This document shows positions 37,301 to 56,328 of a DNA stretch of 64,000 nt, one piece after another. The DNA is taken from assembly GCA_044892525.1 (NCBI GenBank), contig CM097887.1:107176397-107240396 (forward strand), written 5' to 3'. The position numbers were made by a program, and so were the translations under genes. The notes beneath the pieces were generated by a model. It made no database searches. It was not told where the DNA came from and saw nothing but the letters and a program-made list of their open reading frames with translations. The DNA is from Schmidtea polychroa (Eukaryota). Each line of letters begins with the position of its first letter. Within the stretch, counting starts at the first letter, position 1.

Positions 37301-40300
37301 ACGGTCGCAGCAAAAATGAATCACCTCACCTCAAACTATTGGTATTATCCCAGGAGAGTGGATATTCCAAACGATTTCAAATTCGCAGGAGGGCCTCGAA
37401 AGCAAATGATGATAACGGTTATAAATAACCAAGGTAGATTAAAATTGGCGGAACTATGTAGAGATTATGGTTCATGTCCGAAATTGGAAAGCATTTGGAT
37501 CCATGCGATCAATAGGCCATTCACTGTGTTTATGGCGGGATTAGAGTTACCTGTTGAATTAGAAAAACAGTGTACTCTGGAGATATACCACGCTGATGGA
37601 CGAGAACGGAATATTATGATCCAGGCAGCAGCAGTTGATACCATAATCGCAGTAGAAATCTTGGATTTCAGGAAGCCATACTCTATAGTTAGCAAAAACG
37701 AGCCAACTTGGATTTACAATGTAAATAAAGTTGATATACAGCAGTGTAAATCATTTGTGAGGAAGAAGTTAACCAAAGCCGAGGAGGACGAGGCTACAAT
37801 TTTCATATCGGCAGGTTTTGCCAAATCCCGAATCGAACTGAAGGAGACAATTATCCAAATCGCAATTATGGATATGAGGGGAAATAATTTATTGAGTGCG
37901 GTAGTGACTCCCAGAGACCCTGTAAAACACTACCAAACGCACCAATACAAGTTAAAGGAACCTGATATTAGAGGAAACCTCGACGAAGATGATTGTTATC
38001 CTCTGATAAGATCTGCGATAAGAAAATACTTGTAGGTATTTTGCTTAAAGATCTGATCTCGGTAGCCAATCTACCAGTGCAGCGGATACTGAGTATTCGT
38101 GACCTTTCTGCAAATAAACTATTGGAAACCAGAGGAGTCCCAATGATTCATGGTCATTACAGATTGGGATTCCCGACGAAAACTTTCCTGCGTACAGTTC
38201 CCGGAGAACCAAGGAATTTAGTGGTCACCAATGAGGCACTGGCGATACGTGCGGTTTATTTACATTTCAGAAACGAATGGTTAGACCATATCACGAAACC
38301 CCAGGAGGAATTCATTTCCGTAACTACAGCAGCGATAGTTGAGCAGGAAATGACGCAAAAGAGGAGATTACCCGAGCAACCATCTACATCAGGGCAACCC
38401 AAGCCTAAGAGAAAATCACCTGTGGACTTACCACCGCCTCCAGCTATATCTATTGGAGAAGAAGATGAATATGAAACATGCGTTAGCGAAACGGAGACAG
38501 CAAAATCACCCAAACAATCATCGGGAGCTGCCTATCAGCCAAAGAATAAATCGGAAAATGCGGTCAGAAAAGAAAATCCAGAAGGAGGCAAGGTGAAAAA
38601 GATGTTAAAGAAAATATTACCCATAAAAAGACAATTTTTTCAAATTTGTCAGACTTCCCGCCAACGGAAATTCTTCAACGATGTCTTATTTTAAAGCTCA
38701 TTGCAATACCTTTCGAATGTGGTATAGAAATCCATATTATCAATATTATTGGTAAAGGTATTATTATTTTTTCAAAATATTATTTTTTCAAGGTCATTTA
38801 TATTTTCAAGGTCAATCATATTTTCAAGGTCATATTTTAAAATTTAAATTTTTAGAGTTCCCACCAATGGAATTTATTGGCCGATGGCTAATTTTGAAGC
38901 CCACTGCAATACCTTTCGAATGACGTATAGATATTCATATTATCATTATTATTAATAAAGATATTATTTTTTCAAAATATTATTTTTCAAGGTCGTTTAT
39001 TTTTTCAAGGTTCAAAATCTGTTCAAAGCTACTGTTTTAGTCAATACGAACCAGATGAAATAATCGGTTCCATCGCCAAAAGTGATGCTCATCCTATTTG
39101 AATATATGCCTGAAAGATTGAAAGATTCAAGTTGAAAGACCTGAAATTAGAAGACAATCACAAGAAAATATTATCCGGACAATTGATGTCCGGACTGCAA
39201 TACTTGCATAATTTGAATATCGCCCACTGCAATATCAATCCAAAAGACATTTTCGATGATATGGCAGAATTAAGATTAAAGATTTCAAACTTTGGAGGAC
39301 GAATAATAAAATTGCGCTTATCGTCATATTAGAAAATGACCAGCGAGTCGAGAGATTAGTGCTCAACCATGCTTATCTAAGTAGAAGATGGACAATCAAA
39401 CCAGATACCGTGACAAAGGCGAACATTTCGTATTTGGAATTTACGGAGAGAACCGGTTGGTATATAATATATCAAGAAATAGTAAATCTAATACCTCCCA
39501 CAAAAGGAGAACTAACTGGCAAAGAAGGAAAGGCTAGATTAGTGAGTATTCCTGGTTGTAAAGGAATAAAGGATTTGAATTGGTTTAGTATCAGAAAGGT
39601 AGCGAGTGTAAACCAGCCCCGCATAAATAAATTAATTAATAATTGTAGAGTTCAAAATACGTTAAACGGGACAACGAGAGATAAAACCTCAACTTGGTTA
39701 TTCTTAATCATGATAGGGGGAGTAATTTGCATGATTTTAATTTTGATATTAACCACCCTATGGATGCTTAGATTAAATATGCGGGATATTCGTTATTGGG
39801 AAATTATTTACGAAACCGAGGTATAGGGGGAAAGTCTCACCATATACTAGGAAGTGTAAATATATATTTTATCTATTTTATATGTTATTTATATTAGTAT
39901 GTAAACTAATGTGGGCTCAAATGAGCATCGGTAAAATCAGACATCAGCGTATGTCGACTTTGGTTACCCTGCGAGGGTCTATCACGAAAGTGATAAAAGC
40001 TGTTAATTATTTTATTTTTAGAAAAATGAATTATAACAGAGAACCAAAACCACCAGTCAAAGCAAATCGACGACACCCATTGGCAACGTACAATTCCCAG
40101 ACTCGAGTTGAAACTGAAGTATATAGTACATACAAAGAAGAGTACGTATACAGGTTCATCGGAACTACGGTCGCAGCAAAAATGAATCACCTCACCTCAA
40201 ACTATTGGTATTATCCCAGGAGAGTGGATATTCCAAACGATTTCAAATTCGCAGGAGGGCCTCGAAAGCAAATGATGATAACGGTTATAAATAACCAAGG

Positions 40301-41882
40301 TAGATTAAAATTGGCGGAACTATGTAGAGATTATGGTTCATGTCCGAAATTGGAAAGCATTTGGATCCATGCGATCAATAGGCCATTCACTGTGTTTATG
40401 GCGGGATTAGAGTTACCTGTTGAATTAGAAAAACAGTGTACTCTGGAGATATACCACGCTGATGGACGAGAACGGAATATTATGATCCAGGCAGCAGCAG
40501 TTGATACCATAATCGCAGTAGAAATCTTGGATTTCAGGAAGCCATACTCTATAGTTAGCAAAAACGAGCCAACTTGGATTTACAATGTAAATAAAGTTGA
40601 TATACAGCAGTGTAAATCATTTGTGAGGAAGAAGTTAACCAAAGCCGAGGAGGACGAGGCTACAATTTTCATATCGGCAGGTTTTGCCAAATCCCGAATC
40701 GAACTGAAGGAGACAATTATCCAAATCGCAATTATGGATATGAGGGGAAATAATTTATTGAGTGCGGTAGTGACTCCCAGAGACCCTGTAAAACACTACC
40801 AAACGCACCAATACAAGTTAAAGGAACCTGATATTAGAGGAAACCTCGACGAAGATGATTGTTATCCTCTGATAAGATCTGCGATAAGAAAATACTTGTA
40901 GGTATTTTGCTTAAAGATCTGATCTCGGTAGCCAATCTACCAGTGCAGCGGATACTGAGTATTCGTGACCTTTCTGCAAATAAACTATTGGAAACCAGAG
41001 GAGTCCCAATGATTCATGGTCATTACAGATTGGGATTCCCGACGAAAACTTTCCTGCGTACGGTTCCCGGAGAACCAAGGAATTTAGTGGTCACCAATGA
41101 GGCACTGGCGATACGTGCGGTTTATTTACATCTCAGAAACGAATGGTTAGACCATATCACGAAACCCCAGGAGGAATTCATTTCCGTAACTACAGCAGCG
41201 ATAGTTGAGCAGGAAATGACGCAAAAGAGGAGATTACCCGAGCAACCATCTACATCAGGGCAACCCAAGCCTAAGAGAAAATCACCTGTGGACTTACCAC
41301 CGCCTCCAGCTATATCTATTGGAGAAGAAGATGAATATGAAACATGCGTTAGCGAAACGGAGACAGCAAAATCACCCAAACAATCATCGGGAGCTGCCTA
41401 TCAGCCAAAGGATAAATCGGAAAATGCGGTCAGAAAAGAAAATCCAGAAGGAGGCAAGGTGAAAAAGATGTTAAAGAAAATATTACCCATAAAAAGACAA
41501 TTTTTTCAAATTTGTCAGACTTCCCGCCAACGGAAATTCTTCAACGATGTCTTATTTTAAAGCTCATTGCAATACCTTTCGAATGTGGTATAGAAATCCA
41601 TATTATCAATATTATTGGTAAAGATATTATTATTTTTTCAAAATATTATTTTTTCAAGGTCATATTACTATTTTTTCAAAATATTATTTTTTCAAGGTCA
41701 TTCATATTTTCAAGGTCATTCATATTTTCAAGGTCCATCATATTTTTAAGGTCATATTTTAAAATTTAAATTTTTAGAGTTCCCACCAGTGGAATTTATT
41801 TGCCGATGGCTAATTTTGAAGCCCACTGCAATACCTTTCGAATGACGTATAGATATTCATATTATCATTATTATTAATAAAG

Positions 41883-43250
41883 TGTTGGACTAGAACTGAT
41901 TTCTAGACCCAAACTTCTAATTATGACTGAAACGTGTAGGTACACAACATGCACAAAGCAAAAAGTATAGCCAAATATTTAAAACTACACCAATTAAACA
42001 AAAATAATTAAGGGAGAAAACAACAAAAAATGAAAACAGAAAGTAAATAAAATTATACAAAAGCAAGAAGTTTTGTAAAATCAAACTCAAAAATATCCAT
42101 ATAAACATAGAATTACAAAAACAAACTCGAATAACTTAAAAGACGACAAAAACAGTAAAAAATTCCAGAAAAACTCAGAACATTCCATTAAAAATGGCGA
42201 TGACCATCACAAAAGCCAGCTAGAACAATAAAAGTTAGAGAAAATAAATAAATTAGTATTAAAAATAATAAATCTTAAAAAGAAATTCATAAAACATCAG
42301 TTAAAATAAAAATAAAATAGAATTAAAATGGAATGTTCTGGAACCGTTCCAAATCCATCATGGACGGCAAATTAACGAAAAATAATTAAAAAATAAAAAT
42401 ATAAAAATAAAAACAAAAATTATGGCACAAAAATCGCCATCAAAAATAGCAAAATCGTAAAATAGAAAATTCTGGAATAAAAAGAATTCGAGTTTGTTTT
42501 AATGCATCAATACATACACGTGTACTAAATAGGTATATATACTGACACGTTTCAGTCAGAACTTCACTTTTTATGCCAATATTTTATTGTTGAAAATCTT
42601 ACGGAAATTTATAGTGAGTAATTTTTCATTATTATATGTTTTATGAAATCATTTTAATGTTAATATATGTTTCATGTAATCATTTCAATATAATCTACCT
42701 TTAATTAACATATTTAAAGACCTATGATCTTTCTCATTATTTTGTTTTACGACTGATCAGCGACGTCTTAGTGCGTCCCTATTCAGTCCTGCATTCGATA
42801 GTGATGCAGCCTTCTAAAANNNNNNNNNNNNNNNNNNNNNNNNNNNNNNNNNNNNNNNNNNNNNNNNNNNNNNNNNNNNNNNNNNNNNNNNNNNNNNNNN
42901 NNNNNNNNNNNNNNNNNNNNNNNNNNNNNNNNNNNNNNNNNNNNNNNNNNNNNNNNNNNNNNNNNNNNNNNTCGGCCACTTCATGGTTCTACCATGGAGT
43001 TGTGTCGATAAAACCCCTCTGCTATGGCTCCATATACTTTATTTATAGGTCGACAGTGATGTTTCGACTCAACACAACAGTAGGGCTTGTCGTAGCGGTC
43101 ACAGTGGGGCCGTGTAAGCAAGCATTCTTCCCGAGTTCGAATGCATTACATATTTAAACTCAACATTAAAAATCTCGCACAATAGGTTTACACTAAGGTC
43201 ATAATCGAGTAGCATCTCAGACCCAAATTGAACACATATAGTCGGTTGAA
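41883..43250 (+). repeat. Left long terminal inverted repeat (TGTTGG family), with a 5' stem-loop and an internal 14-bp inverted motif TGACTGAAACGTGT (41924-41937 / 42545-42558)
   Basis: It aligns by eye to the reverse complement of ~52270-53630 on both sides of the gap. Shared examples are TGTTGGRCTAGAACTGAYTTCTAGACCCAAAC, TTCAGTCCTGCAT, ACTTCATGGTYCTRCCATGGAGTT, GGTCACAGTGGSGCC and ATTCTTCCCGA. Confidence 0.85.
42820..42971. other. Assembly gap (N run)
   Basis: Run of N characters. Confidence 1.
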
Positions 43251-43296
43251 CGTCATTAAAAAACTCAGTTATACCGGTACGTTTGTCGGACCTCAT

Positions 43297-43324
43297 TGAT
43301 ATATATATATATATATATATATAA
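43297..43324. repeat. (TA)n microsatellite
   Basis: ATATATAT... run. Confidence 0.95.
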
Positions 43325-44321
43325 TTCTTAAGGTTGCTATAAAAGTTTTTCAAAAGTAAACGCAATAATCCACGTAAGGAAGTTTCGACAAGCGTACATA
43401 GTAAAATGAAAATGCTTAATTATTTTAAACGAAATTCATTACTTCTGAATAACTACAGTTCTGAAAATAACGTACATTACCCTGATATAAAATTGTTAAT
43501 ATGTATGATCTCTGAATTCCGAAGTACAATCAAGAATTCAAAGCTGTAATTGTAGATACGTATTGTCATTAAATTATAGAATATGTCTTAAAATTATTTT
43601 TATAATTGTGAACTATTAATGAATCATTAACTTAAAATTTTTCCCTTTTTGAAAAGTATTCTATAAATATTAAATTATTATCTTATTTTAAGATGTAATG
43701 TATAAGGGTATTATAATACTCAAGGACAAATATAATTTCATATTACCCTTAAATTCTCATCTATGAATATTAAATTATAAAATACACCTCGGTGCCACCC
43801 TTAAAATACAAGGTGTTATGGTGTAGTAGTATTGAATGATGACTTTATTAAAATATGGAATACATCCTCAGAAGTATAATGTACAAATGTACCATCGTTC
43901 GGAATTATAGGGGAATTATTATAATTTACATAAATGCCCGAATTAGAAATTATAAATTATAATGTATAGTTCATTTCGCATACGTAAATGTCTGAATTAG
44001 AAAGTTATATATTAAAAATACAGACTGTAAATTATAAGGTATAATACATTCAGCATACATAAATGCCTAAATTGGAAATTAAGTTTTATATTAAAAATAC
44101 AAATTATAAATTATAATTTTATACTACCTCAATGTATAACTTATTTATAATACCTAAATGCCTAAATTAGGAATTAACAATTTCATATCAGGGATATAAA
44201 ATGTAAACTATAACTAATTATATGAAATGTTGGGTTATAAAATATAAAGCGTAAATGATTAAAAATAAATTATATATCTTGATCTTAGAAATATAGGCTA
44301 TATATGATTACAATATTATAT

Positions 44322-45460
44322 AACTATAAAGTATAAATAGTTATATCTGAATCACATAAGTATAATATTCTTAAAATTGCAAACTATAAATAATTATGGA
44401 AAAAATTTTAATTATCAGAATATAAATTATAATTAATTATATATAACTATAAAGTATAACTAATTATATCTGAATCATATAAGTATATTATTCTTAAAAT
44501 TGCAAACTATAAATAATTATGGATAAAATTTTAATTATCAGAATATAAATCATAATTAATTATATATAACTATAAAGTATAAATAGTTATATCTGAATCA
44601 CATAAGTACAATATTCTTAAAATTGCAAACTATAAATAATTATGGAAAAAATTTTAATTATCAGAATATAAATTATAATTAATTATATATAACTATAAAG
44701 TATAACTAATTATATCTGAATCATATAAGTATATTATTCTTAAAATTGCAAACTATAAATAGTTATGGATAAAATTTTAATTATCAGAATATAAATTATA
44801 ATTAATTATATATAACTAGAAAGTATAGATAATTATATCTGAATCATATAAGTATATTATTCTTAAAATTGCAAACCATAAATAATTATTTTAATTATCA
44901 GAATATAAATTATAATTAATTATAAATAACTATAAAGTATAAATAATTATATCTGAATCAATATTATTCTTAAAATTGCAAACCATAAATAATTATACAC
45001 AAAATTTTAATTATCAGAACATAAATTATAATTAATTATATATAATGTTGAGCATAAAATATAAAGTATAAATAGTTATCTATGAATCCTGTAAGTATAT
45101 TATTCTTAAGATGGCAAATTATAAATACTCACGGAAAAATTTTTAATTATCAAAATATAAATTATAATTAATTATATATAAATGTGGAGCGTAAAATATA
45201 AAGTGTGATTCGTTAGATATGAAGCCTATAGGTATGTTATTCTTAAAAAGGTAAACTATAAATAATTATGGATACAATTTTAGTTACAAGAATATAATTT
45301 ATCAATAATTATATTTTGATTATAAAGTAGAGAGTATAAATGAGTATATAGATCATGTAGGTGTCTTGTTCTTAAAAGTATAAACTATAAATGGTGCAAA
45401 ATATAAATCATAATTAATTATATACAACATTCGAAGTATTAAGTATAAATAATTATATAT
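44322..45460 (+). repeat. 123-bp AT-rich minisatellite with a 246-bp dimeric higher-order structure, decaying at both ends
   Basis: AACTATAAAGTATA starts at 44322, 44445, 44568, 44691, 44814 (variant AACTAGAAAGTATA) and 44928. Copies 1/3 and 2/4 share diagnostic alleles. Diverged relatives extend back to ~43900. Confidence 0.92.
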
Positions 45461-46698
45461 TTCAAAAAAAAGAGATAATTATAGATAAAGGTTAGCTACA
45501 AAAATGAATGGTTCACCTGAGTGCCGATCTTAAAAACTTCAATTATAGGTAGTTGGGTGGTAAACAATTATATATAAATTACGAGCGGTCGTAGGTTATC
45601 GAAGTATTAATGGTAAATAACCCTACAAAACTATAAAGTATAGTAATGCAAATCATAAACCCGGAAAATGGCAGGTACCTCATAAAATGTCGTCGAATTT
45701 TATTCTACCCCTAAAATATGTATTATAAAATAAAAATGTAAATTATAAGTGTGAAGATTTTAATGTTTTAGATATTTATATCACTATTGAACGATCAAAA
45801 ATGATTATAGAAATTAAAGTCGGTCGTTAAATTAATTCGCAGACAACTCTATCAGAGGAAGTAGTATTTGACCTGCAAGGACCCAGTAGTGGCCTGTTTT
45901 TAAAGTTACTTGAGACTCTGATTCTCTGAAAACCTCAGTAGGAGTAGGAATCCCAAAACCAATGTCGTTCAGGCATAAATAAGAAAGTCACATTAAAGAG
46001 GTAACGACAAATGATAACCTAAGCTCCTTATAGAATTAACGGGGACGATACAACACATGAATGGATATAGTTTATAAATTAATAAATGACTTACCAAATG
46101 CCCATGAAGCAAATTACCATAAATACCGACAAGCATTAGAAGCAGGTTGGCGTCGGAAAATAAAAGATTTTTTTTCATAAGAGACAGGTTGGAATTATGG
46201 CCAATTTTTATTTCGAAATTAGATTAAAAGGGCATACAACTGAAATGCTGAAAAGGTTGTTATGAATATAATAGCAGCATACACCCCTTGAACGACTTCA
46301 CCGACGAAGGGTATTGGAACACAGTTCGACAATAAGACCGTTCGCCAGCGAAATCTTTCTCTAGGGCTAATTATAGTAAATAATATAAGCTGAATTAAAT
46401 AATTCAGCTTAAATACAAATGTAAATAAATGATGCCCATGATGTAAATAATTACATAATAAGGTTAGCTTAACAAAACAACTAAATGCATGTTTTAATTT
46501 TTCATTAAAAGTTAAACTAATAGATCTAAGCGATTTAGATAAGACGACCACGAGCAAAAAATAAATTTCAGAGTCAAAGAAAATTTTTGTCTCTGGTTGA
46601 ATTAGTAATAAAGTATTTATAAGGAAGATCCCTTTCGATGTTTCTAGGTTGAGGCTATAAGGTGATGATAAGTAATGATTACCCCATTTTTTGGCTAT

Positions 46699-47091
46699 AA
46701 ATTTGGGCGACGGTCAGGAATCCGGATTATTTTAATTAATTTAAAATCAATATTTAATTAATAATAAAATAACAACCATTTAAATATTTTAATTCGAAAC
46801 CAAATTCAAAAAAATATCGAAAATATTTCCATCCGCCAAATTTTCCCTCGAAAGCCACATTCTAAAGGCTATGTAATTCATCTAATTCGACTAATACCCT
46901 TACGACCAGTACCCTTACGACCAGTACCCTTACGACCTGTACCCTTAGGGGGTCAAAACATCCTGTCGGATAAACTCAGAGTATATATAATAAAACTGAT
47001 CAACAATAAGAATTTTTTAGTTTAAATATTGATTAAATATTGATTTTAAATTAATTAAAATAATCCGGATTCCTGACCGTCGCCTAAATTT
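46699..47091. mobile_element. MITE-like element with 60-bp terminal inverted repeats and an internal 15-bp tandem repeat
   Basis: 46699-46758 versus 47032-47091 are inverted with 1 mismatch (AAATTTRGGCGACGGTCAGGAATCCGGATTATTTTAATTAATTTAAAATCAATATTTAAT). (TACCCTTACGACCAG) occurs 3.5 times at 46895-46947. The TSD is ambiguous (the palindrome AAATTT lies on both sides). Confidence 0.7.
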
Positions 47092-47235
47092 GTCATCTAA
47101 CTTACGACAAGGCACACTATCATCATCAGAGGGTAACTATTCGCTCGAACCACTGTTTTACGTCTTAGTAGACTGATAAGAAAGATGAAATTTTAAAAGG
47201 AAAATTACCATTAACCATTTTCATTTAACCACAGA

Positions 47236-47598
47236 ATGTCGCAAGCAAGTGATCCCGACGAAGCCGAATATAGGCAAATGATAACGCGGCTCCGGACCCG
47301 GTACATCTGGTATCGGATACACGACTGGAACCGGGGGTTGGACCTCGATAATTATGGTCCGGTCATTCGAAGCGGCCCAGAGCCCGATGCCCCGGCGTTG
47401 GTGAAAACCGAACCCTTCAACAACGTGTTAAGAGAAGCCCGCGATCGAGCGGCCATCGAGGTAGAAGTGGCCCAGATGCGGCTGAGGAGACTCGAACTCC
47501 AGCTCAAAGCCGAAATGATGGGAGTAACTCCTGAAGAGCTGGAGGAGACAGATGCTCCTCCAAGAAAGCGAGGGAGACCCCGTAAGAACCCTGCTTAA
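47236..47598 (+). CDS. 120-aa GC-rich protein with coiled coil, SUMO-consensus VKTE and C-terminal AT-hook (PRKRGRPRK)
   Basis: Real ATG preceded by an acceptor-like TTTAACCACAG. It aligns without gaps to 49764-50126 (74/120 identical by my count), with many synonymous changes. Confidence 0.8.
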   Translation: MSQASDPDEAEYRQMITRLRTRYIWYRIHDWNRGLDLDNYGPVIRSGPEPDAPALVKTEPFNNVLREARDRAAIEVEVAQMRLRRLELQLKAEMMGVTPEELEETDAPPRKRGRPRKNPA

Positions 47599-47917
47599 TC
47601 CGCCGGCCGTGGCAACTGGGACAAGACTATTTAACTAATTTGATCCAGTGATGTGTTTGCGTTGGACCTTTTTAGCCGCTAATATAACAAATGATAATCT
47701 TTTTTTATTAAATTGTTGACAATATATTTCATTATGTATCTTCGTAGTATAATAAATTATTTGCCTGCTATTACATTTTGGACTTTACGGCTTGTGGGGT
47801 GGATTCATGATGAAGGTGACCCTCCCCATCCTTTATCTATTAATTTTATGAAATTAGTCGAGTCGCCTTTATGCATACGGAAACGAGCGACGAAATTTTT
47901 ATTATCGTTTTCCTTCA

Positions 47918-48346
47918 GTGTACAAGCTACTTGAAAACCTACGCAAGGACCGCGAACAGGCCCAACACCAATCCGAGGATCTTCGAAGTCGAGTTGAGAA
48001 GCTCAAAATCAAGTGCCGAGAACTCGAAGGCACTTGGTTCAGTCCGGCTGAGATGAAGAAACGGACAACGCACATCTCACGGCTCCAGATCCAGGCGGAG
48101 CAAGACCAGCTCGAAATCCAAGCGTTGAAGCTACAAGTACGCTCGCTCGAGAGCAAACTGAATGAAAGATTCATCCAGGACGCCCTCTAAGAGTAGATTC
48201 GCCCACTTCCGGTGGAGCTGGCCCAGATGTACCCACCAGCCTAGGCAAGCAAGCCGAAACGTAAACGTAAACCCGAGACAAATTGAAAAGGGTCTGGCTG
48301 GCCGAGCAGGAGAAATTGAAAGAGGCTGAATCCAATCCACGGCCCT
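47918..48346 (+). pseudogene. Coiled-coil protein exon, left copy; C-terminus disrupted by nonsense codons and a frameshift
   Basis: 47918-48190 is heptad-rich and ~65% identical to 49086-49556. Homology continues past TAA/TAG (IRPLPVELAQMYPPA*ASKPKRKR, then shifted RDKLKRVWLAEQEK). Acceptor TTTTCCTTCAG|TG at 47918. Confidence 0.7.
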
Positions 48347-48487
48347 GAGAGATGTTCGAGAGTGCGACCATCCTGAGCAAACAAACCTTGTAATATAATA
48401 GTGATTAAATAAATTATTCTTGTTGTCTAATGAGTATGTGATTGAACTTTGCCGTTGTCTAAAACAAGGTGATTGGTAGAAAGGCGT

Positions 48488-48922
48488 TTGGGAAAACAAT
48501 CTCGATGAGGGACCGAAACAAATCGGACACGTGCCTTCTATCGGCGTCCGTGAACCCATAGAGTGCTCGACAATTACAGTGCTTGACGCGCTCACTTTTT
48601 GCGAGTACTCAACCCCTTGGTACATTACCAACGTTGATTGCTCAACGGGTACCAAGAGGAAAACAATGTTGTGGTGGGTTACTGATGATCCGATATTTTG
48701 TTCTTTAGTGCTGTTGCTAGCGTAACCCAAGAATACAACGTTAGTGTTTCCGCTTGGTACCCGTTGAGTAATCAACGTTGGTCCTGTACCAAGGGTTGAG
48801 TACTCGCGAAAAGTGAGCGCATCGAGGCACTATAATCGTCGAGCACTCTATGGGTTCACGGACTACCGTTAGAAGGTTTGTGTCCGATTTCCTTAGGTCC
48901 CTTATCAAAATTGTTTTCCCAA
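48488..48922. other. ~435-bp imperfect palindrome: two ~190-bp structured arms around a central hairpin
   Basis: 48488-48682 is the reverse complement of 48722-48922 (roughly 85% by eye). Each arm contains three internal stem-loops. The axis stem is GGGTTAC (48676-82) / GTAACCC (48722-28). Confidence 0.92.
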
Positions 48923-49085
48923 CCTTACGTACAAACTCTCACTTTTCAGGTAATCATAAAATATATCAGTCATTTTTTAACACTACAAAACATGTATTAT
49001 TTTAACAACAAGCAAAGGAAATATCATTTTAATACTACTAGATATATAAAACACCCTACAGAAATACACATCAAGGAATGGAAGT

Positions 49086-49556
49086 TCAACTTGGCCAGTT
49101 GGTGGGGCCGGTTAGTCTCGTCGTAGATATTTGCGAGGAGCCCACTTGCTTTTCGTACTCGGCCAGTCTGGCCCTCTTTAATTTCTCACGAATGTTTCTC
49201 CCCAGCCGCTTCCTCTTGGGCTTATCTTTCGCGGCCGGAGGGTAAATGGCTGCCAACTCCACGGACAATGGCTGGATTTGACTTATGATGGCTCCGTGAA
49301 CCGCTTGTTCATTACGTTCGGTTTCCAACGCGCGGAGTTGGAGCTTCAAGGCCCGGATCTCCATCTGATCCTGCGCGTTTTGAGTCTGCAATTGGAGGAC
49401 CTGTGTCAACTTCTTCTTCATATCCTGGGGACTAAACCAGGTGCTTTCTAGTTCACGGCACCGTCCCTTGAGTTTGTCCACTCGTATACGGAGCTCCTCG
49501 GCCTGTTTTTGGGCTTCTTCTCTGTCCTTTCGTAGATTTTCACATAGTTTGATCAC
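49086..49556 (-). CDS. Coiled-coil protein exon with basic NLS-like tail (KDKPKRKRL), right copy, open
   Basis: 156-codon open frame with a heptad pattern. There is no ATG at the start; instead a splice acceptor TTTATCTAG|TG lies at the same position and phase as in the left copy. Confidence 0.7.
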   Translation of the reverse strand: MIKLCENLRKDREEAQKQAEELRIRVDKLKGRCRELESTWFSPQDMKKKLTQVLQLQTQNAQDQMEIRALKLQLRALETERNEQAVHGAIISQIQPLSVELAAIYPPAAKDKPKRKRLGRNIREKLKRARLAEYEKQVGSSQISTTRLTGPTNWPS

Positions 49557-49763
49557 TAGATAAATTACAATGGTTATCTGCTTGCAGCATTCCCCTCATT
49601 CAATATAATAAGATCAATATCATGCATAACGATACTTTAGCTATTAAATAAGAAATTTATTCAGAAGATAATTTATTAAAAGGAGTAACATATGATCCTC
49701 AACCCATTTTTGATTATTCGTCACAATATACACAATTATAATAAGTCAGGAGTCGGTCCTTGA

Positions 49764-50126
49764 TCACCCTCGGCATTTGCGGGGCCTCCCTCTTTTTCGT
49801 GGGGATGCTTCGGCCTCCTCTAGCTCTTCCACGGGCACTCTTTCTTTTTTCGCCCGGATTTGCAACTCGATCTTCCTGAGTCGCATCTGAGCGGCTTCCA
49901 CCTCCCAGGCCACTTGGTCTCGGGCCTCCTCCAACCGGTTATTCTCCGGTTCCACCTTCACCCACGCCGGGGCATCCACTTCGGGGCCTGTCCGGATTAC
50001 TCGTTCCGCACAATCCAGGTCCCTTCCCTGACCCCACCGATGTATATGTTGCCAGATATACCGGGTCCGGAGACGGGTGATCGTCTGTTGGTCCTCCTCT
50101 GCACTGTGGTTGCTTGATTGTGACAT
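49764..50126 (-). CDS. 120-aa AT-hook/coiled-coil protein, right paralog
   Basis: MSQSSNHS...VKVEP...SPRKRGRPRKCRG. ATG at 50126 is preceded by acceptor-like TGCATTGCAG. Same length as 47236-47598. Confidence 0.8.
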   Translation of the reverse strand: MSQSSNHSAEEDQQTITRLRTRYIWQHIHRWGQGRDLDCAERVIRTGPEVDAPAWVKVEPENNRLEEARDQVAWEVEAAQMRLRKIELQIRAKKERVPVEELEEAEASPRKRGRPRKCRG

Positions 50127-51297
50127 ATCTGCAATGCAAATGTTACGATCTATTCCCAATCAAGGACATACAAATTGAAGTTAGGATAAAATATCTCAGT
50201 TAATTAATAAGTTGCTGAAGTAAGCTAAGTACTTTTAACACGAGGATTGAATTTAATTTAGCGATAAATTTTGATCATTTAAATTAAGAAGACAACAAAA
50301 AAAAATAAAAAAAAATTAATAATTAATAATTTGAGTAAAGTAATGGACTTCTGATTTCATTATTACCTTTTCGTCTTATTAAAATTATTTAGCGTCATTC
50401 AAATTTTCGTTGTTTTATGATAGTCATCATAATTAACGTTAAATAATAAATTTCGATTAAATATATAATTCTAGCTAATTTTGACATACTAATGTAAGTA
50501 AATGTTAAATATTCATATCCTAAACATTGTAATACTATTTCAGCAATAACAGCAGTCGGCCGCACTCCCACAACAATCGCCATTGACCAACATGGATTTA
50601 CAAATTAAAATATGGTATGCTCAGTTAAGCTTGTGGATATTAAATCAACTATATTTCCGACATACCCACTGATCTCACTGGTGTCACTTCAACCGAAACT
50701 CGCGTTAAAGATAGAAAAAGCCGATCTCATCCGAGCAACAAACGAAAAATGTCCATCTCCGATCCCAAAGCTGCCAGGCAAAGAAATAAAGCCTATTTGT
50801 AGTTGGAGTTTCTCTCTTTGAATTTTGTTCGGAATGTCGTGATTAAATAAACTATTAATATTTTTTTTAGTCGCAAAGACAATGATGTAAATAAATTTGG
50901 TGATTAATAAATGTAGGGTACTATTGGGTTTCATCTTTTGATCTGACTTGAATACAAGTTTGTCCATAATTTTTACAACTTGTTCTACTTTTATTACTTT
51001 AACGGGGTTGTGGAAATTATTCCACCTAGGGTCTTGAGGGGAAAGATTATAGTATTTGTTGTCTCTCAGATCTATATATATAAACACACATACACATATA
51101 TACATATCCACCCACACATATACATATAGGGATATAATTGAAGTTAATAAAATTCGATCGTTTTCAGGGGGGTGTTACTAAAAATAGATTTTAGTGATTT
51201 TCCGCAATTTTATTGGAAGGTAGGGCCATTGACGCTAAATTTAGAGCTAGGGGAATCCTAAAATCAATAATTTGTTTATAATTTTATTTTACGAAAT

Positions 51298-51670
51298 AAT
51301 TATTTAAAATTCATTACTAATAATATTGGTAATAATAATACGATAATGTTACGAACGACAATATTAATATTAATAATGGCAATAATCATAATGATAATAA
51401 TGATAATAATGATAATAATATTAATAATGACAGCCAANNNNNNNNNNNNNNNNNNNNNNNNNNNNNNNNNNNNNNNNNNNNNNNNNNNNNNNNNNNNNNN
51501 NNNNNNNNNNNNNNNNNNNNNNNNNNNNNNNNNNNNNNNNNNNNNNNNNNNNNNNNNNNNNNNNNNNNNNNNNNNNNNNNNNNNNNNNNNNNNNNNNNNN
51601 NNNNNNNNNNNNATCATAAGAATATAATATTGATAATATGAGCAGTACTACTATGATACTGATAATGATT
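51298..51670. repeat. (ATA/ATG)n microsatellite flanking an assembly gap (N 51438-51612)
   Basis: ATAATAATGATAATAATG runs on both sides of the N stretch. Confidence 0.9.
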
Positions 51671-52269
51671 AACTGTAAATGTTCATAATTTTATTCTTAT
51701 ACCTGTTTGACGACTATACAAGTATTTACCGTCAATATTTAGAAGCATGTCCTATATAGATAATTATAATTTATCAATTTGAAAATTTATATGTTTATAA
51801 TTCATGATTTTCCATCTTCCAATTTATAATTTGTAATTTACAAATTTATATTTTCTGATTTCTAGTTTTTCATTTCATAATTTTATATTTTATGATTTAG
51901 AATTCTATATTTTGTAATTTGTAATTTTCCTTTTTACTATTTATAATTTTATATTTTACACATTTATATTTCATAATTTCCAATGTTATTATTCATAATT
52001 TACAATTCTATGATCTACAATTTCTAATTTTGTATTTGATAATTCGAGTTCGTAATTTGCGCTATTAGGTTTGTAATATCTACATTTACCTTATAATTAA
52101 TTTAAAAACCTATTTAGATTGAGTTCTACTTAGACGTAGGCCGAATATCTTTATCGTTTCTATTACTTCGATTACCATAAGATTACAAAACCTAATTCGG
52201 CATGTGTCTAAGCATAACTAAAGTTGTTATTATTGATCAAACAGCTACATTACTGTGATTGCAGAATTG

Positions 52270-53630
52270 TGTAAGTTTAGGTATGAGCTCTACTCAGATT
52301 AATGCCTTAGTGTAGAGATGTTGTCTATGATTTTAAATGTTAAAATTAATTGTGTATTAAGCAATGGTCGGGAAGAATATTGCTTCCATGGCGCCACTGT
52401 GACCACTTCCACAAACCTTAGTGTTGTGTGCTGAGTCAACCATTTACGGTTGACCTTAGATAAATACAAAGAGTCAGACGGAGGGTTTCCTCGACCTAAC
52501 TCCATGGCAGGACCATGAAGTAGTTCGACCCCCGAAAGACCCGAACAAAAAAAGGGACGATATAATATCAGATTGCTATAATATTGATAATGCATGTGCG
52601 ATAAAAATTAGATGCAGGACTGAACGACGACGCAGGAATACCAGTACGCCGTCGAACCTTCGTACATCACTGGAGAAAATCAAAAGCAAGAAACATCAAA
52701 AAATGCAATTACTTCGATTTCCCCTACATAAATAATAACAAATTGAAAAAGTGATTCATCAATGCAATAAAAATCAACAAATAAAATAATAATAAATTGA
52801 AAAAGTAATTCATTAATGTAATAAAAAATCAACAAATAAATTAATAACAGATTGAAAAAGTAATTCATTAGTGTAATAAAAAAAATCAACAATTCTTACT
52901 ATTTTCGTTGGCAATATTTTCTTCAAAAATTGGCATAAAATAGTGATTGATTGTGACTGAAACGTGTCAGTATATATACCTATTTTGTACACGTGTATGT
53001 ATTGATGCATTAAAACAAACTCGAATTCTTTTTATTCCAGAACTTTCTATTTTGTAATTTCGATATTTTAAATGGCAATTTTTGTGCCATAATTTTTGTT
53101 TTTATTTTTAAATTTTTATTCTTTAATTATTTTTCATTAATTTTACGTCCATGATGGATTTGGAACGGTTCCAGAACATTCTATTTCACTTTTAATTTAA
53201 TTTTTATTTTAATTGGTGTTTTATGGACTTTTTTTTACGAATTTTCATTTTTATTACTAATTTATTGATTTTGTCTAAATTTTATTGTTTAAGATAGCTT
53301 TTATGATGGTCATCGCCATTTTTATGGAATGTTCTGGGTTTTTCTGGAATTTTTTACTGTTTTTACCATCTTTTAAGTTATTCGAGTTTGTTTCTTGTAA
53401 CTCTATGTTTATTTGATCATTTTTGAGTTAGATTTTGTATAACTTCTTGCTATTGGTATGATTTTATTTAATTTCGGTGTTTATGCTTTTGTTGTTTTCT
53501 CCTTGAATTAATATTGTTTATTTGATGTAATTTTAATATTTAACTACACTTTTTGCTTTTTGCATGTTGTGTACCTACACCTTTCAGTCACAATTCCAGT
53601 TTGGGTCTAGAAGTCAGTTCTAGCCCAACA
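52270..53630 (-). repeat. Right long terminal inverted repeat (TGTTGG family)
   Basis: Reverse-complement homology to 41883-43250. It ends ...GTTCTAGCCCAACA at 53630. Confidence 0.85.
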
Positions 53631-53680
53631 GTTGTATGCTGGGTTACGCTGGTAACAGCACTTAAACATTCAACCACCAG
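53631..53680 (+). other. Terminal hairpin module (GGGTTAC...GTAACCC-A-CCA), homologous to the central axis 48668-48739
   Basis: GTTGTATGCTGGGTTACGCTGGTAACAGCACTTAAACATTCAACCACCAGTAACCCACCA versus the reverse complement of the axis, GTTGTATTCTTGGGTTACGCTAGCAACAGCACTAAAGAACAAAATATCGGATCATCAGTAACCCACCA. Confidence 0.85.
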
Positions 53681-53815
53681 TAACCCACCAAAAGATATTA
53701 TTTTTTCAAAATATTATTTTTCAAGGTCGTTTATTTTTTCAAGGTTCAAAATCTGTTCAAAGCTACTGTTTTAGTCAATACGAACCAGATGAAATAATCG
53801 GTTCCATCGCCAAAA

Positions 53816-54066
53816 GTGATGCTCATCCTATTTGAATATATGCCTGAAAGATTGAAAGATTCAAGTTGAAAGACCTGAAATTAGAAGACAATCACAAGAA
53901 AATATTATCCGGACAATTGATGTCCGGACTGCAATACTTGCATAATTTGAATATCGCCCACTGCAATATCAATCCAAAAGACATTTTCGATGATATGGCA
54001 GAATTAAGATTAAAGATTTCAAACTTTGGAGGACGAATAATAAAATTGCGCTTATCGTCATATTAG
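53816..54066 (+). pseudogene. Degenerate kinase fragment, orphan copy
   Basis: Same sequence and frameshift as the array copies. Confidence 0.8.
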
Positions 54067-54092
54067 AAAATTACCAGCGAGTCGAGAGATTA

Positions 54093-54557
54093 GTGCTCAA
54101 CCATGCTTATCTAAGTAGAAGATGGACAATCAAACCAGATACCGTGACAAAGGCGAACATTTCGTATTTGGAATTTACGGAGAGAACCGGTTGGTATACA
54201 ATATATCAAGAAATAGTAAATCTAATACCTCCCACAAAAGGAGAACTAACTGGCAAAGGAAAGGCTAGATTAGTGAGTATTCCTGGTTGTAAAGGAATAA
54301 ACGCTTTGGATTGGTTTAGTGTCAGAAAGGTAGCGAGTGTAAACCAGCCCCGCATAAATAAATTAATTAATAATTGTAGTTGTCAAAATACGTTAAAGGG
54401 GACAACGAGAGATAAAACCTCAACTTGGTTATTCTTAATCATGATAGGGGGAGTAATTTGCATGATTTTAATTTTGATATTAACCACCCTATGGATGCTT
54501 AGATTAAATATGCGGGATATTCGTTATTGGGAAATTATTTACGAAACCGAGGTATAG
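54093..54557 (+). CDS. 154-aa transmembrane ORF, orphan copy
   Basis: Homologous to the array 155-aa ORF, with a 3-bp deletion and several substitutions. Confidence 0.55.
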   Translation: MLNHAYLSRRWTIKPDTVTKANISYLEFTERTGWYTIYQEIVNLIPPTKGELTGKGKARLVSIPGCKGINALDWFSVRKVASVNQPRINKLINNCSCQNTLKGTTRDKTSTWLFLIMIGGVICMILILILTTLWMLRLNMRDIRYWEIIYETEV

Positions 54558-54612
54558 GGGGAAAGTCTCACCATATACTAGGAAGTGTAAATATATATTT
54601 TATCTATTTTAT

Positions 54613-56328
54613 ATGTTATTTATATTAGTATGTAAACTAATGTGGGCTCAAATGAGCATCGGTAAAATCAGACATCAGCGTATGTCGACTTTGGTTACCC
54701 TGCGAGGGTCTATCACGAAAGTGATAAAAGCTGTTAATTATTTTATTTTTAGAAAAATGAATTATAACAGAGAACCAAAACCACCAGTCAAAGCAAATCG
54801 ACGACACCCATTGGCAACGTACAATTCCCAGACTCGAGTTGAAACTGAAGTATATAGTACATACAAAGAAGAGTACGTATACAGGTTCATCGGAACTACG
54901 GTCGCAGCAAAAATGAATCACCTCACCTCAAACTATTGGTATTATCCCAGGAGAGTGGATATTCCAAACGATTTCAAATTCCCAGGAGGGCCTCGAAGGC
55001 AAATGATGATAACGGTTATAAATAACCAAGGTAGATTAAAATTGGCGGAACTATGTAGAGATTATGGTTCATGTCCGAAATTGGAAAACATTTGGATCCA
55101 TGCGATCAATAGGCCATTCACTGTGTTTATGGTGGGATTAGAGTTACCTGTTGAATTAGAAAAACAGTGTACTCTGGAGATATACCACGCTGATGGACGA
55201 GAACGGAATATTATGATCCAGGCAGCAGCAGTTGATACCATAATCGCAGTAGAAATCTTGGATTTCAGGAAGCCATACTCTATAGTTAGCAAAAACGAGC
55301 CAACTTGGATTTACAATGTAAATAAAGTTGATATACAGCAGTGTAAATCATTTGTGAGGAAGAAGTTAACCAAAGCCGAGGAGGACGAGGCTACAATTTT
55401 CATATCGGCAGGTTTTGCCAAATCCCGAATCGAACTGAAGGAGACAATTATCCAAATCGCAATTATGGATATGAGGGGAAATAATTTATTGAGTGCGGTA
55501 GTGACTCCCAGAGACCCTGTAAAACACTACCAAACGCACCAATACACGTTAAAGGAACCTGATATTAGAGGAAACCTCGACGAAGATGATTGTTATCATC
55601 TGATAAGAAAGATCTGCGATAAGAAAATACTTGTAGGTATTTTGCTTAAAGATCTGATCTCGGTAGCCAATCTACCAGTGCAGCGGATACTGGGTATTCG
55701 TGACCTTTCTGCAAATAAACTATTGGAAACCAGAGGAGTCCCAAAGATTCATAGTCATTACAGATTGGGATTCCCGACGAAAACTTTCCTGCGTACGGTT
55801 CCCGGAGAACCAAGGAATTTAGTGGTCACCAATGAGGCACTGGCGATACGTGCGGTTTATTTACATATCAGAAACGAATGGTTAGACCATATCACCATAC
55901 CCCAGGAGGAATTCATTTCCGTAACTACAGCAGCGATAGTTGAGCAGGAAATGACGCAAAAGAGGAGATTACCCGAGCAACCATCTACATCAGGGCAACC
56001 CAAGCCTAAGAGAAAATCACCTGTGGACTTACCACCGCCTCCAGCTATATCTATTGGAGAAGAAGATGAATATGAAACATGCGTTAGCGAAACGGAGACA
56101 GCAAAATCACCCAAACAATCATCGGGAGCTGCCTATCAGCCAAAGGATAAATCGGAAAATGCGGTCAGAAAAGAAAATCCAGAAGGAGGCAAGGTGAAAA
56201 AGATGTTAAAGAAAATATTACCCATAAAAAGACAATTTTTTCAAATTTGTCAGACTTCCCGCCAACGGAAATTCTTCAACGATGGCTTATATAACGCTAT
56301 TAACATTTTGAATGCTAAGTACTGTTAG
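54613..56328 (+). CDS. 571-aa protein: unknown N-terminal domain, degenerate DEDDh 3'-5' exonuclease fold (~55396-55885), and a basic/Pro-rich tail with a bipartite NLS-like motif
   Basis: IFISAGF...IIQIAIMDMRGNNLLSAVVTPRDPVKHYQTHQY.LKEPDI...ICDKKILVGILLKDL...IRDLS...VTNEALAIRAVY parallels REX4/ISG20 (VALDCE...ARVSIVN..G.VLYD.YVKP...VTDYRT..SGI...LKGRILVGH...NDL...IRDTS...SVEDARAAM.LY). The Exo I acids are lost. Tail: KRRLPEQPSTSGQPKPKRK. The true start codon is uncertain. Confidence 0.7.
   Translation: MLFILVCKLMWAQMSIGKIRHQRMSTLVTLRGSITKVIKAVNYFIFRKMNYNREPKPPVKANRRHPLATYNSQTRVETEVYSTYKEEYVYRFIGTTVAAKMNHLTSNYWYYPRRVDIPNDFKFPGGPRRQMMITVINNQGRLKLAELCRDYGSCPKLENIWIHAINRPFTVFMVGLELPVELEKQCTLEIYHADGRERNIMIQAAAVDTIIAVEILDFRKPYSIVSKNEPTWIYNVNKVDIQQCKSFVRKKLTKAEEDEATIFISAGFAKSRIELKETIIQIAIMDMRGNNLLSAVVTPRDPVKHYQTHQYTLKEPDIRGNLDEDDCYHLIRKICDKKILVGILLKDLISVANLPVQRILGIRDLSANKLLETRGVPKIHSHYRLGFPTKTFLRTVPGEPRNLVVTNEALAIRAVYLHIRNEWLDHITIPQEEFISVTTAAIVEQEMTQKRRLPEQPSTSGQPKPKRKSPVDLPPPPAISIGEEDEYETCVSETETAKSPKQSSGAAYQPKDKSENAVRKENPEGGKVKKMLKKILPIKRQFFQICQTSRQRKFFNDGLYNAINILNAKYC

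Follow-up and report, generated by a model that had tools for sequence, protein, structure and literature searches.

The two pairs of small genes that face each other in the window (the whole 64,000-nucleotide stretch of DNA analysed here) represent the ends of two giant gypsy-type elements, one of which is inserted backwards into the other. Each pair, ORF1 and ORF2, forms a cassette carried in the long terminal repeat (LTR) of that element, and this architecture and the coding status of the genes are near certain. Their function was read from motifs, which would make the cassette a source of LTR-borne nuclear regulators of the element itself, like the accessory genes of complex retroviruses; our confidence in this proposal is evenly balanced.

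Two nested solo LTRs

The features of the window are listed here by coordinate.

41879-41882 and 53691-53694: target duplication of LTR-A, 4 bp, AAAG
41883..48671, plus strand: solo LTR-A (type A), main part, starting TG
42972..43236, plus strand: non-coding block common to A- and B-type LTRs (~74%), with its counterpart at 52254-52553, minus strand
44317..45329, plus strand: 123-bp AT-rich tandem array, 8.1 copies, in LTR-A
46706..47084, no strand: MITE-like insertion in LTR-A, 379 bp, bounded by terminal inverted repeats; target duplication of 8 bp
47236..47598, plus strand: ORF1a, 120 aa, AG acceptor 1 nt ahead of its ATG
47919..48348, plus strand: ORF2a exon (coiled coil and basic motif), starting after AG with no ATG; broken by three stops and one frameshift
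48488..48922, no strand: apparent central palindrome, formed by conserved LTR 3' blocks lying tail to tail
48668-48671 and 53631-53634: target duplication of LTR-B, GTTG, the second copy being the first 4 bp of the final 60 bp of LTR-A
48672..53630, minus strand: solo LTR-B (type B), 4959 bp, TG..CA
49086..49555, minus strand: ORF2b exon, open, starting after AG with no ATG at its start
49764..50126, minus strand: ORF1b, 120 aa, open, AG acceptor 2 nt ahead of its ATG
51760..52031, minus strand: 59-bp AT-rich tandem array, ~4.6 copies, in LTR-B
53631..53690, plus strand: final 60 bp of LTR-A, displaced by LTR-B, ending CA

LTR-A (whole span 41883-53690) and LTR-B both have TG..CA ends and flanking target duplications and lack an internal region, as solo LTRs do. 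The nested target duplications are perfect, and LTR-B lies inside LTR-A, about 60 bp short of its end. The sequence-only reading had taken the convergent genes, the palindrome at their centre and the inverted arms on the outside for a single element; they are instead a solo LTR lying backwards in another, and the outer arms are the 5' ends of LTR-A and LTR-B. In a survey of 50 loci, 45 had an LTR 3' end on the downstream side of ORF1, with two more interrupted by another LTR and three giving no resolved arrangement, whilst an inverted LTR end was seen in just 3/50 (the window's own two and one further locus, L020). The local convergent layout is thus an ordinary nested insertion. That selection maintains the convergent arrangement as a unit, or that the ORFs belong to some ordinary family of host genes, is barely credible. 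The inverted LTR end at L020 speaks for it; the perfect nested duplications, the 45 loci at which one LTR 3' end follows the cassette and the broken ORF2a speak against it, the protein databases searched gave no homologue, and we regard it as already largely refuted.

The closest copies fetched from the genome were 94.6-98.6% identical to segments of LTR-A and 97.4-98.5% identical to LTR-B. The non-coding block common to A- and B-type LTRs had no match in the single E-type LTR checked. The MITE-like insertion contains an internal 15-bp repeat and is missing from element E2 (see below); its GG termini would, we presume, fit Merlin-type elements. LTR-A interrupts a tandem array of 2866-bp units, which resumes at the matching unit position beyond it. 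This array covers positions 1-41882 and 53691-56290 of the window and two upstream stretches (L091 and L092), with more than 20 units at ~99-100% identity. One unit holds a 571-aa ORF (54613-56328), for which a Pfam scan gave no significant match (best E 0.072), and the unit at 39882 holds an ORF of 339 aa.

Comparison of the window ORFs confirmed what had been noticed of them earlier. ORF1a and ORF1b, both 120 aa, align ungapped with 74/120 residues and 229/363 nt identical and keep the three motifs that had been named, although the N-terminus requires a one-residue gap once more copies are aligned. ORF2a and ORF2b share 53/82 residues (~65%), again with no gaps. GC content is 0.52-0.58 in all four ORFs and 0.29-0.36 in the spacers and upstream DNA, so that the ORFs are indeed far richer in GC than their surroundings. 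For the ORF1 pair pS was 0.76 (saturated) and pN 0.24. Poly(A)-like hexamers lie downstream of all four ORFs, which is weak evidence in AT-rich DNA.

The giant element that carries the cassette

Searches of the genome (781 Mb, 1012 contigs) gave at least 151 matches for ORF1a (best 150 scored of 2789 candidates), at least 150 for ORF1b (best 150 scored of 2454) and at least 150 for an ORF1 of a third type (best 150 scored of 1862), all of these being lower bounds and not copy numbers. The ORF1 and ORF2 cassette is present in at least hundreds of dispersed copies, one per LTR, and many ORF1 matches pair on the same strand ~30 kb apart. Four 50-kb regions picked for such pairs each contained an element of ~36 kb (E1-E4), with direct LTRs of 5.0-5.6 kb and one cassette near the 3' end of each LTR. 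The two LTRs of an element were 99.5-99.8% identical in three cases and about 94-95% in E3. A single giant frame (4486 codons in E1, 4776 in E3) encodes in E1, by Pfam and in this order, zinc (CCHC) knuckles, MATH, viral fusion, protease, reverse transcriptase (RT), RNase H, integrase and ankyrin domains. It is followed by TRAF-finger and BIR+RING ORFs (PF00653 E 9.6e-16, plus RING).

This domain order matches the published text on Burro1/GYPSM1, a giant gypsy-like LTR retrotransposon of Schmidtea mediterranea (PMC6431247), and on that ground the window elements are Burro1/GYPSM1-like giant gypsy elements, an assignment made by architecture, which also suggests a Schmidtea-like source organism. 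The suggestion that the ORFs are element-encoded was therefore borne out, with one cassette in each LTR of the ~36-kb elements. The AT-rich arrays to which they had been linked do lie in the same element, the 123-bp array inside LTR-A and the 59-bp array inside LTR-B.

Further observations concern other parts of these elements. In seven of them (E1, E2, B1-B3, F1 and L087) a primer-binding-like site, which we take to resemble that of tRNA-Pro, starts 8 nt past the end of the 5' LTR; the usual offset is 0-2 nt. The leader of E1 (L022:935-1414) contains a 160-aa ORF upstream of gag with a C-terminal RING-like cysteine pattern and an AG abutting its ATG. At G000:C2:133002269-133118772 five same-strand ORF1 matches stand ~29 kb apart, which suggests a tandem chain of LTR-sharing elements.

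Of 54 sources, 49 had an open ORF1 and 5 had one with stops; for ORF2 the reading frame was open in 44 and stopped in 3, whilst 4 sources had part of it and 3 had none. Pairwise dN/dS across 50 distinct ORF1 and 41 distinct ORF2 copies fell with divergence, from 0.42/0.34 (ORF1/ORF2) below 3% to 0.15/0.12 at 15-25% and to 0.12/0.09 between types; between-type dS is saturated, so A-versus-B ratios are rough. Loci were picked by ORF1 similarity, which biases ORF1 dN downwards, and ORF2 provides an independent check. Third codon positions differed at 0.53-0.58 of sites, compared with 0.20-0.29 for the first two. With C-type rows left out, changes common to several copies had a dN/dS of 0.10-0.26 and private changes one of 0.39-0.64, a pattern that we read as selection during replication and drift after insertion. 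The purifying selection claimed by the sequence-only reading thus holds in part. Judged by these codon patterns, ORF1 and ORF2 are under it between lineages (dN/dS about 0.1-0.25), whilst the window's own two copies are drifting, with ORF2a broken; selection acted on the active lineages.

In 49/49 alignable copies an AG is found no more than 4 nt from the ORF1 ATG, and in 44/45 there is one at the ORF2 start. These positions are kept although the upstream DNA differs between types, and most E-type loci have the same AG layout at both ORFs. Of the eight internal ORFs examined, six likewise show an AG 0-3 nt from their first ATG. Since each cassette ORF starts at a conserved acceptor AG and ORF2 lacks an ATG, we infer that they are reached by splicing. 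A donor-like site 231 nt beyond the primer-binding site reads GTA in 7/7 elements, preceded by A in six and G in one; it is a guess from sequence, with an imperfect consensus. Full-length elements would splice a short leader exon at their 5' end to a series of acceptors, including those of ORF1 and ORF2 in the 3' LTR, and joining would create the start codon of ORF2, the exon-final A and TG giving AUG. Because the ORF2 start would form at the leader joint, solo LTRs such as LTR-A and LTR-B would probably express neither ORF1 nor ORF2.

No splice joint was found in the contigs of four runs guessed to be RNA, some of which run unspliced across the ORF2 acceptor, as genomic RNA or DNA would. These contigs cover both ORFs and not the spacers, a pattern that conservation across subfamilies also gives. 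An apparent ORF1-ORF2 joint in a 904-nt contig had unknown letters between the ORFs and was read as an unspliced divergent copy, and a motif from one contig had no match in this genome. The flatworm spliced leader ends in AUG; trans-splicing of it was set aside as the source of the ORF2 start, as the leader AUG would be out of frame and type B stops at once, but it could still apply to ORF1.

Cassette types and proposed function

At least three deep cassette types (49-67% identity) ride on near-identical bodies. A- and B-type LTRs align in five blocks only: the first 700 bp (89%), a 290-bp block (74%), ORF1 (67%), ORF2 (65%) and the last 240 bp (82%). Between the bodies of the two types identity is 91-94%, and A-versus-B pS was 0.13-0.27 internally compared with 0.67 and 0.75 in the cassette. 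In gag, A-type E2 was nearer to B-type B2 (pS 0.10) than to A-type E1 (0.24). The E-type element F1, whose LTRs are >99% alike, has a body 97.2% identical to that of A-type E1 (pS 0.01 in gag, 0.02 in RT), whereas its cassette proteins are 49% and 47% identical to those of E1 (pS 0.87/0.79). A second E-type pair (F2) had no matching body. ORF1 and ORF2 trees from 37 selected rows recovered the same three major clades, but C-type and B-type copies are 91% identical in ORF1 and 75% in ORF2, so the pairing is not strict. All eight LTRs checked contain a 500-bp zone of 13-20% GC. Cassettes have apparently been exchanged between bodies, recombination being the simplest reading of these comparisons.

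Two E-type LTRs that are 99.9% alike and stand 29 kb apart (L113-L116, G000:C1:262434001-262474000) enclose a 5.2-kb inverted pair and no Burro body. A broken and far more distant ORF2-like remnant (33% identity) lies at ~8720-8930 of L116, minus strand; with a comparable remnant in L103 (39%), it hints that there may be more cassette types, or other families of Burro.

Structure prediction with AlphaFold gave helices at residues 7-32, 61-95 and 99-106 of ORF1 (pLDDT 65.5, pTM 0.32) and 2-39, 43-104 and 122-138 of ORF2 (pLDDT 81.7). VKxE, with x being T, V or A, is present in 37/37 ORF1 rows within a region of low pLDDT (residues 39-61); it fits the SUMO consensus psi-K-x-E in what is predicted to be an exposed loop, and is a candidate site. 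RGRP is present in 30/37 rows, including both window copies, which have, towards the C-terminus, the RGRP core with basic flanks of an AT-hook. Some of the seven rows that lack the motif are truncated alignments or decayed copies; the young F1 copy, counted among the seven, reads RGRPC, without a following basic residue. Against Pfam AT_hook (PF02178) ORF1a scored 12.2 bits, below the cut-off of 17.4, and ORF1b gave no match. In ORF2, KRKRLG is present in 35/37 rows. Prediction of an ORF1+ORF2 complex scored 0.02, which is evidence neither way.

Homology searches, with the databases covered here, found no relative of either protein. No homologue emerged among 21 candidates for ORF1 and 17 for ORF2, all of near lengths, and an ORF1 profile had 0 matches at E<=0.001 among 1.84 billion representatives. 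An Atlas search yielded no usable row for ORF1, whilst its rows for ORF2 were generic coiled coils. In PDB sequence searches the best E was 0.95 for ORF1 and 0.0062 for ORF2 (a liprin-beta-2 coiled coil, taken as compositional), and Foldseek with the ORF2 model gave 0 matches.

We favour nuclear regulators because the motifs point to chromatin, and because the genes are inherited and diverge with the promoter DNA and the AT-rich zone whilst the enzymes do not. ORF1 would dimerise via its long helix, bind the AT-rich LTR zone via its AT-hook and recruit chromatin factors via a SUMO site, so that the LTR promoter stays active. ORF2 would serve as its nuclear partner, through the coiled coil, or as a nucleic-acid adaptor. 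Cassette and promoter DNA, with a U3 position assumed, would travel jointly and switch bodies through recombination in the course of reverse transcription. More tentatively, and in our judgement probably not the case, Burro1 LTRs may be exchangeable specificity modules, each with its own promoter DNA and a matched AT-hook/coiled-coil pair, with frequency-dependent selection maintaining several ancient types that move onto a common body. If so, a cassette swap would change the regulatory identity of the retrotransposon, or let it escape silencing or same-type exclusion.

The same motifs would fit a role in integration, in which ORF1 tethers the cDNA complex to AT-rich host chromatin, comparable to MLV p12 or the AT-hooks of EBNA1, and ORF2 imports the complex into the nucleus. 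Such a role would also suit the frequent nesting of these elements in one another's LTRs (the window; B2 in an A-type LTR at its host locus L004; LTR starts in L004 and L016). We consider it unlikely, as nesting is expected from abundance alone, and integrase is near-invariant (dN 0.015, A versus B) while the cassette diverges to ~50%, a poor fit to a fixed partner. A small sample gave no support for a preference of nested insertions for LTR 3' ends.

The depth of the types, with saturated synonymous sites on bodies about 92-97% identical, and the largely joint inheritance of ORF1 and ORF2 could instead mark exclusion or incompatibility groups that repress same-type elements, or a poison-antidote pair, with rare types gaining. 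This is rather improbable: Pfam scans and structure predictions found no toxin-like fold or family, solo copies decay instead of being kept, C-type LTRs mix ORF1 and ORF2 distances, and escape from piRNA silencing could equally favour rare LTR sequences.

We find it quite improbable that the two proteins work through the host, on stem-cell survival or on the machinery of silencing, in the manner of the element's BIR-RING protein, instead of on the LTR. The element does carry many host-interacting modules, and its IAP-like protein in Burro1 is reported, in a secondary account, to protect stem cells (PMC13465017). A host target, however, would favour one form, as in the BIR ORF (dN 0.04), and not promoter-tied types, although divergence might also come from an arms race between the proteins and some host factor.

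Finally, ORF2 could be a Rev/Rex-like RNA adaptor exporting the unspliced 31-kb RNA, leaving ORF1 alone as chromatin factor. The element appears to be multiply spliced, the basic motif of ORF2 follows a helix predicted to oligomerise, and the conserved LTR 3' block folds into hairpins (no shuffle control). The basic motif could equally be a plain nuclear localisation signal, and we hold this role very improbable.

Relation to known elements and accessory genes

The element is already known; as far as the literature found goes, the genes of the LTR cassette are the new part. Burro1/GYPSM1 is described in the text of PMC6431247 as exceeding 30 kb, with ~5-kb tandem-repeat LTRs, a giant gag-MATH-env-PR-RT-RH-IN-ankyrin polyprotein, a BIR ORF and a very high copy number, features that our elements resemble. 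The same text differs in giving accessory ORFs and tandem repeats and no in-LTR genes or exchangeable LTR types, and, figures and supplements apart, genes inside Burro LTRs have no mention in the texts of PMC6431247, PMC8532177, PMC13465017 and PMC11410931. We found no description of Burro-LTR ORFs in a literature search whose scope left aside the two primary Burro papers and Repbase, so that an earlier annotation is possible.

Burro1 is very abundant in an organism used as a model for regeneration, and a secondary account (PMC13465017) credits it with supporting the survival of stem cells. The cassette may bear on how it stays expressed under piRNA control, and two conserved orphan genes in an LTR are small, concrete targets for RNAi and reporter assays. 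With LTR types ~50% alike in protein on 97%-identical bodies, type specificity is directly testable.

Ogre LTR retrotransposons of plants, as described in PMC6431247, likewise have very long LTRs and extra ORFs without assigned function, but those ORFs are in the internal region and not in the LTR. HMGA-type AT-hook proteins (PF02178) share with ORF1 an RGRP core flanked by basic residues and prolines, a short length and acidic stretches; ORF1 differs in its single hook under the Pfam cut-off, its two predicted helices and the lack of homology beyond the motif.

MMTV sag, HIV nef and foamy virus tas/bel2 are LTR-overlapping accessory genes of complex retroviruses. Like the cassette genes they are small and located in U3 or towards the 3' end, and they are expressed from spliced RNA, as we propose for the cassette from its acceptors. 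Tas is specific for its own LTR, and sag exists as divergent variants. We found no sequence similarity between these genes and the cassette, and here two genes lie wholly within a 5-kb gypsy-type LTR, so that every solo LTR carries them. If the cassette proteins are regulators, the complex-retrovirus strategy of self-encoded regulators would extend to a gypsy-type element.
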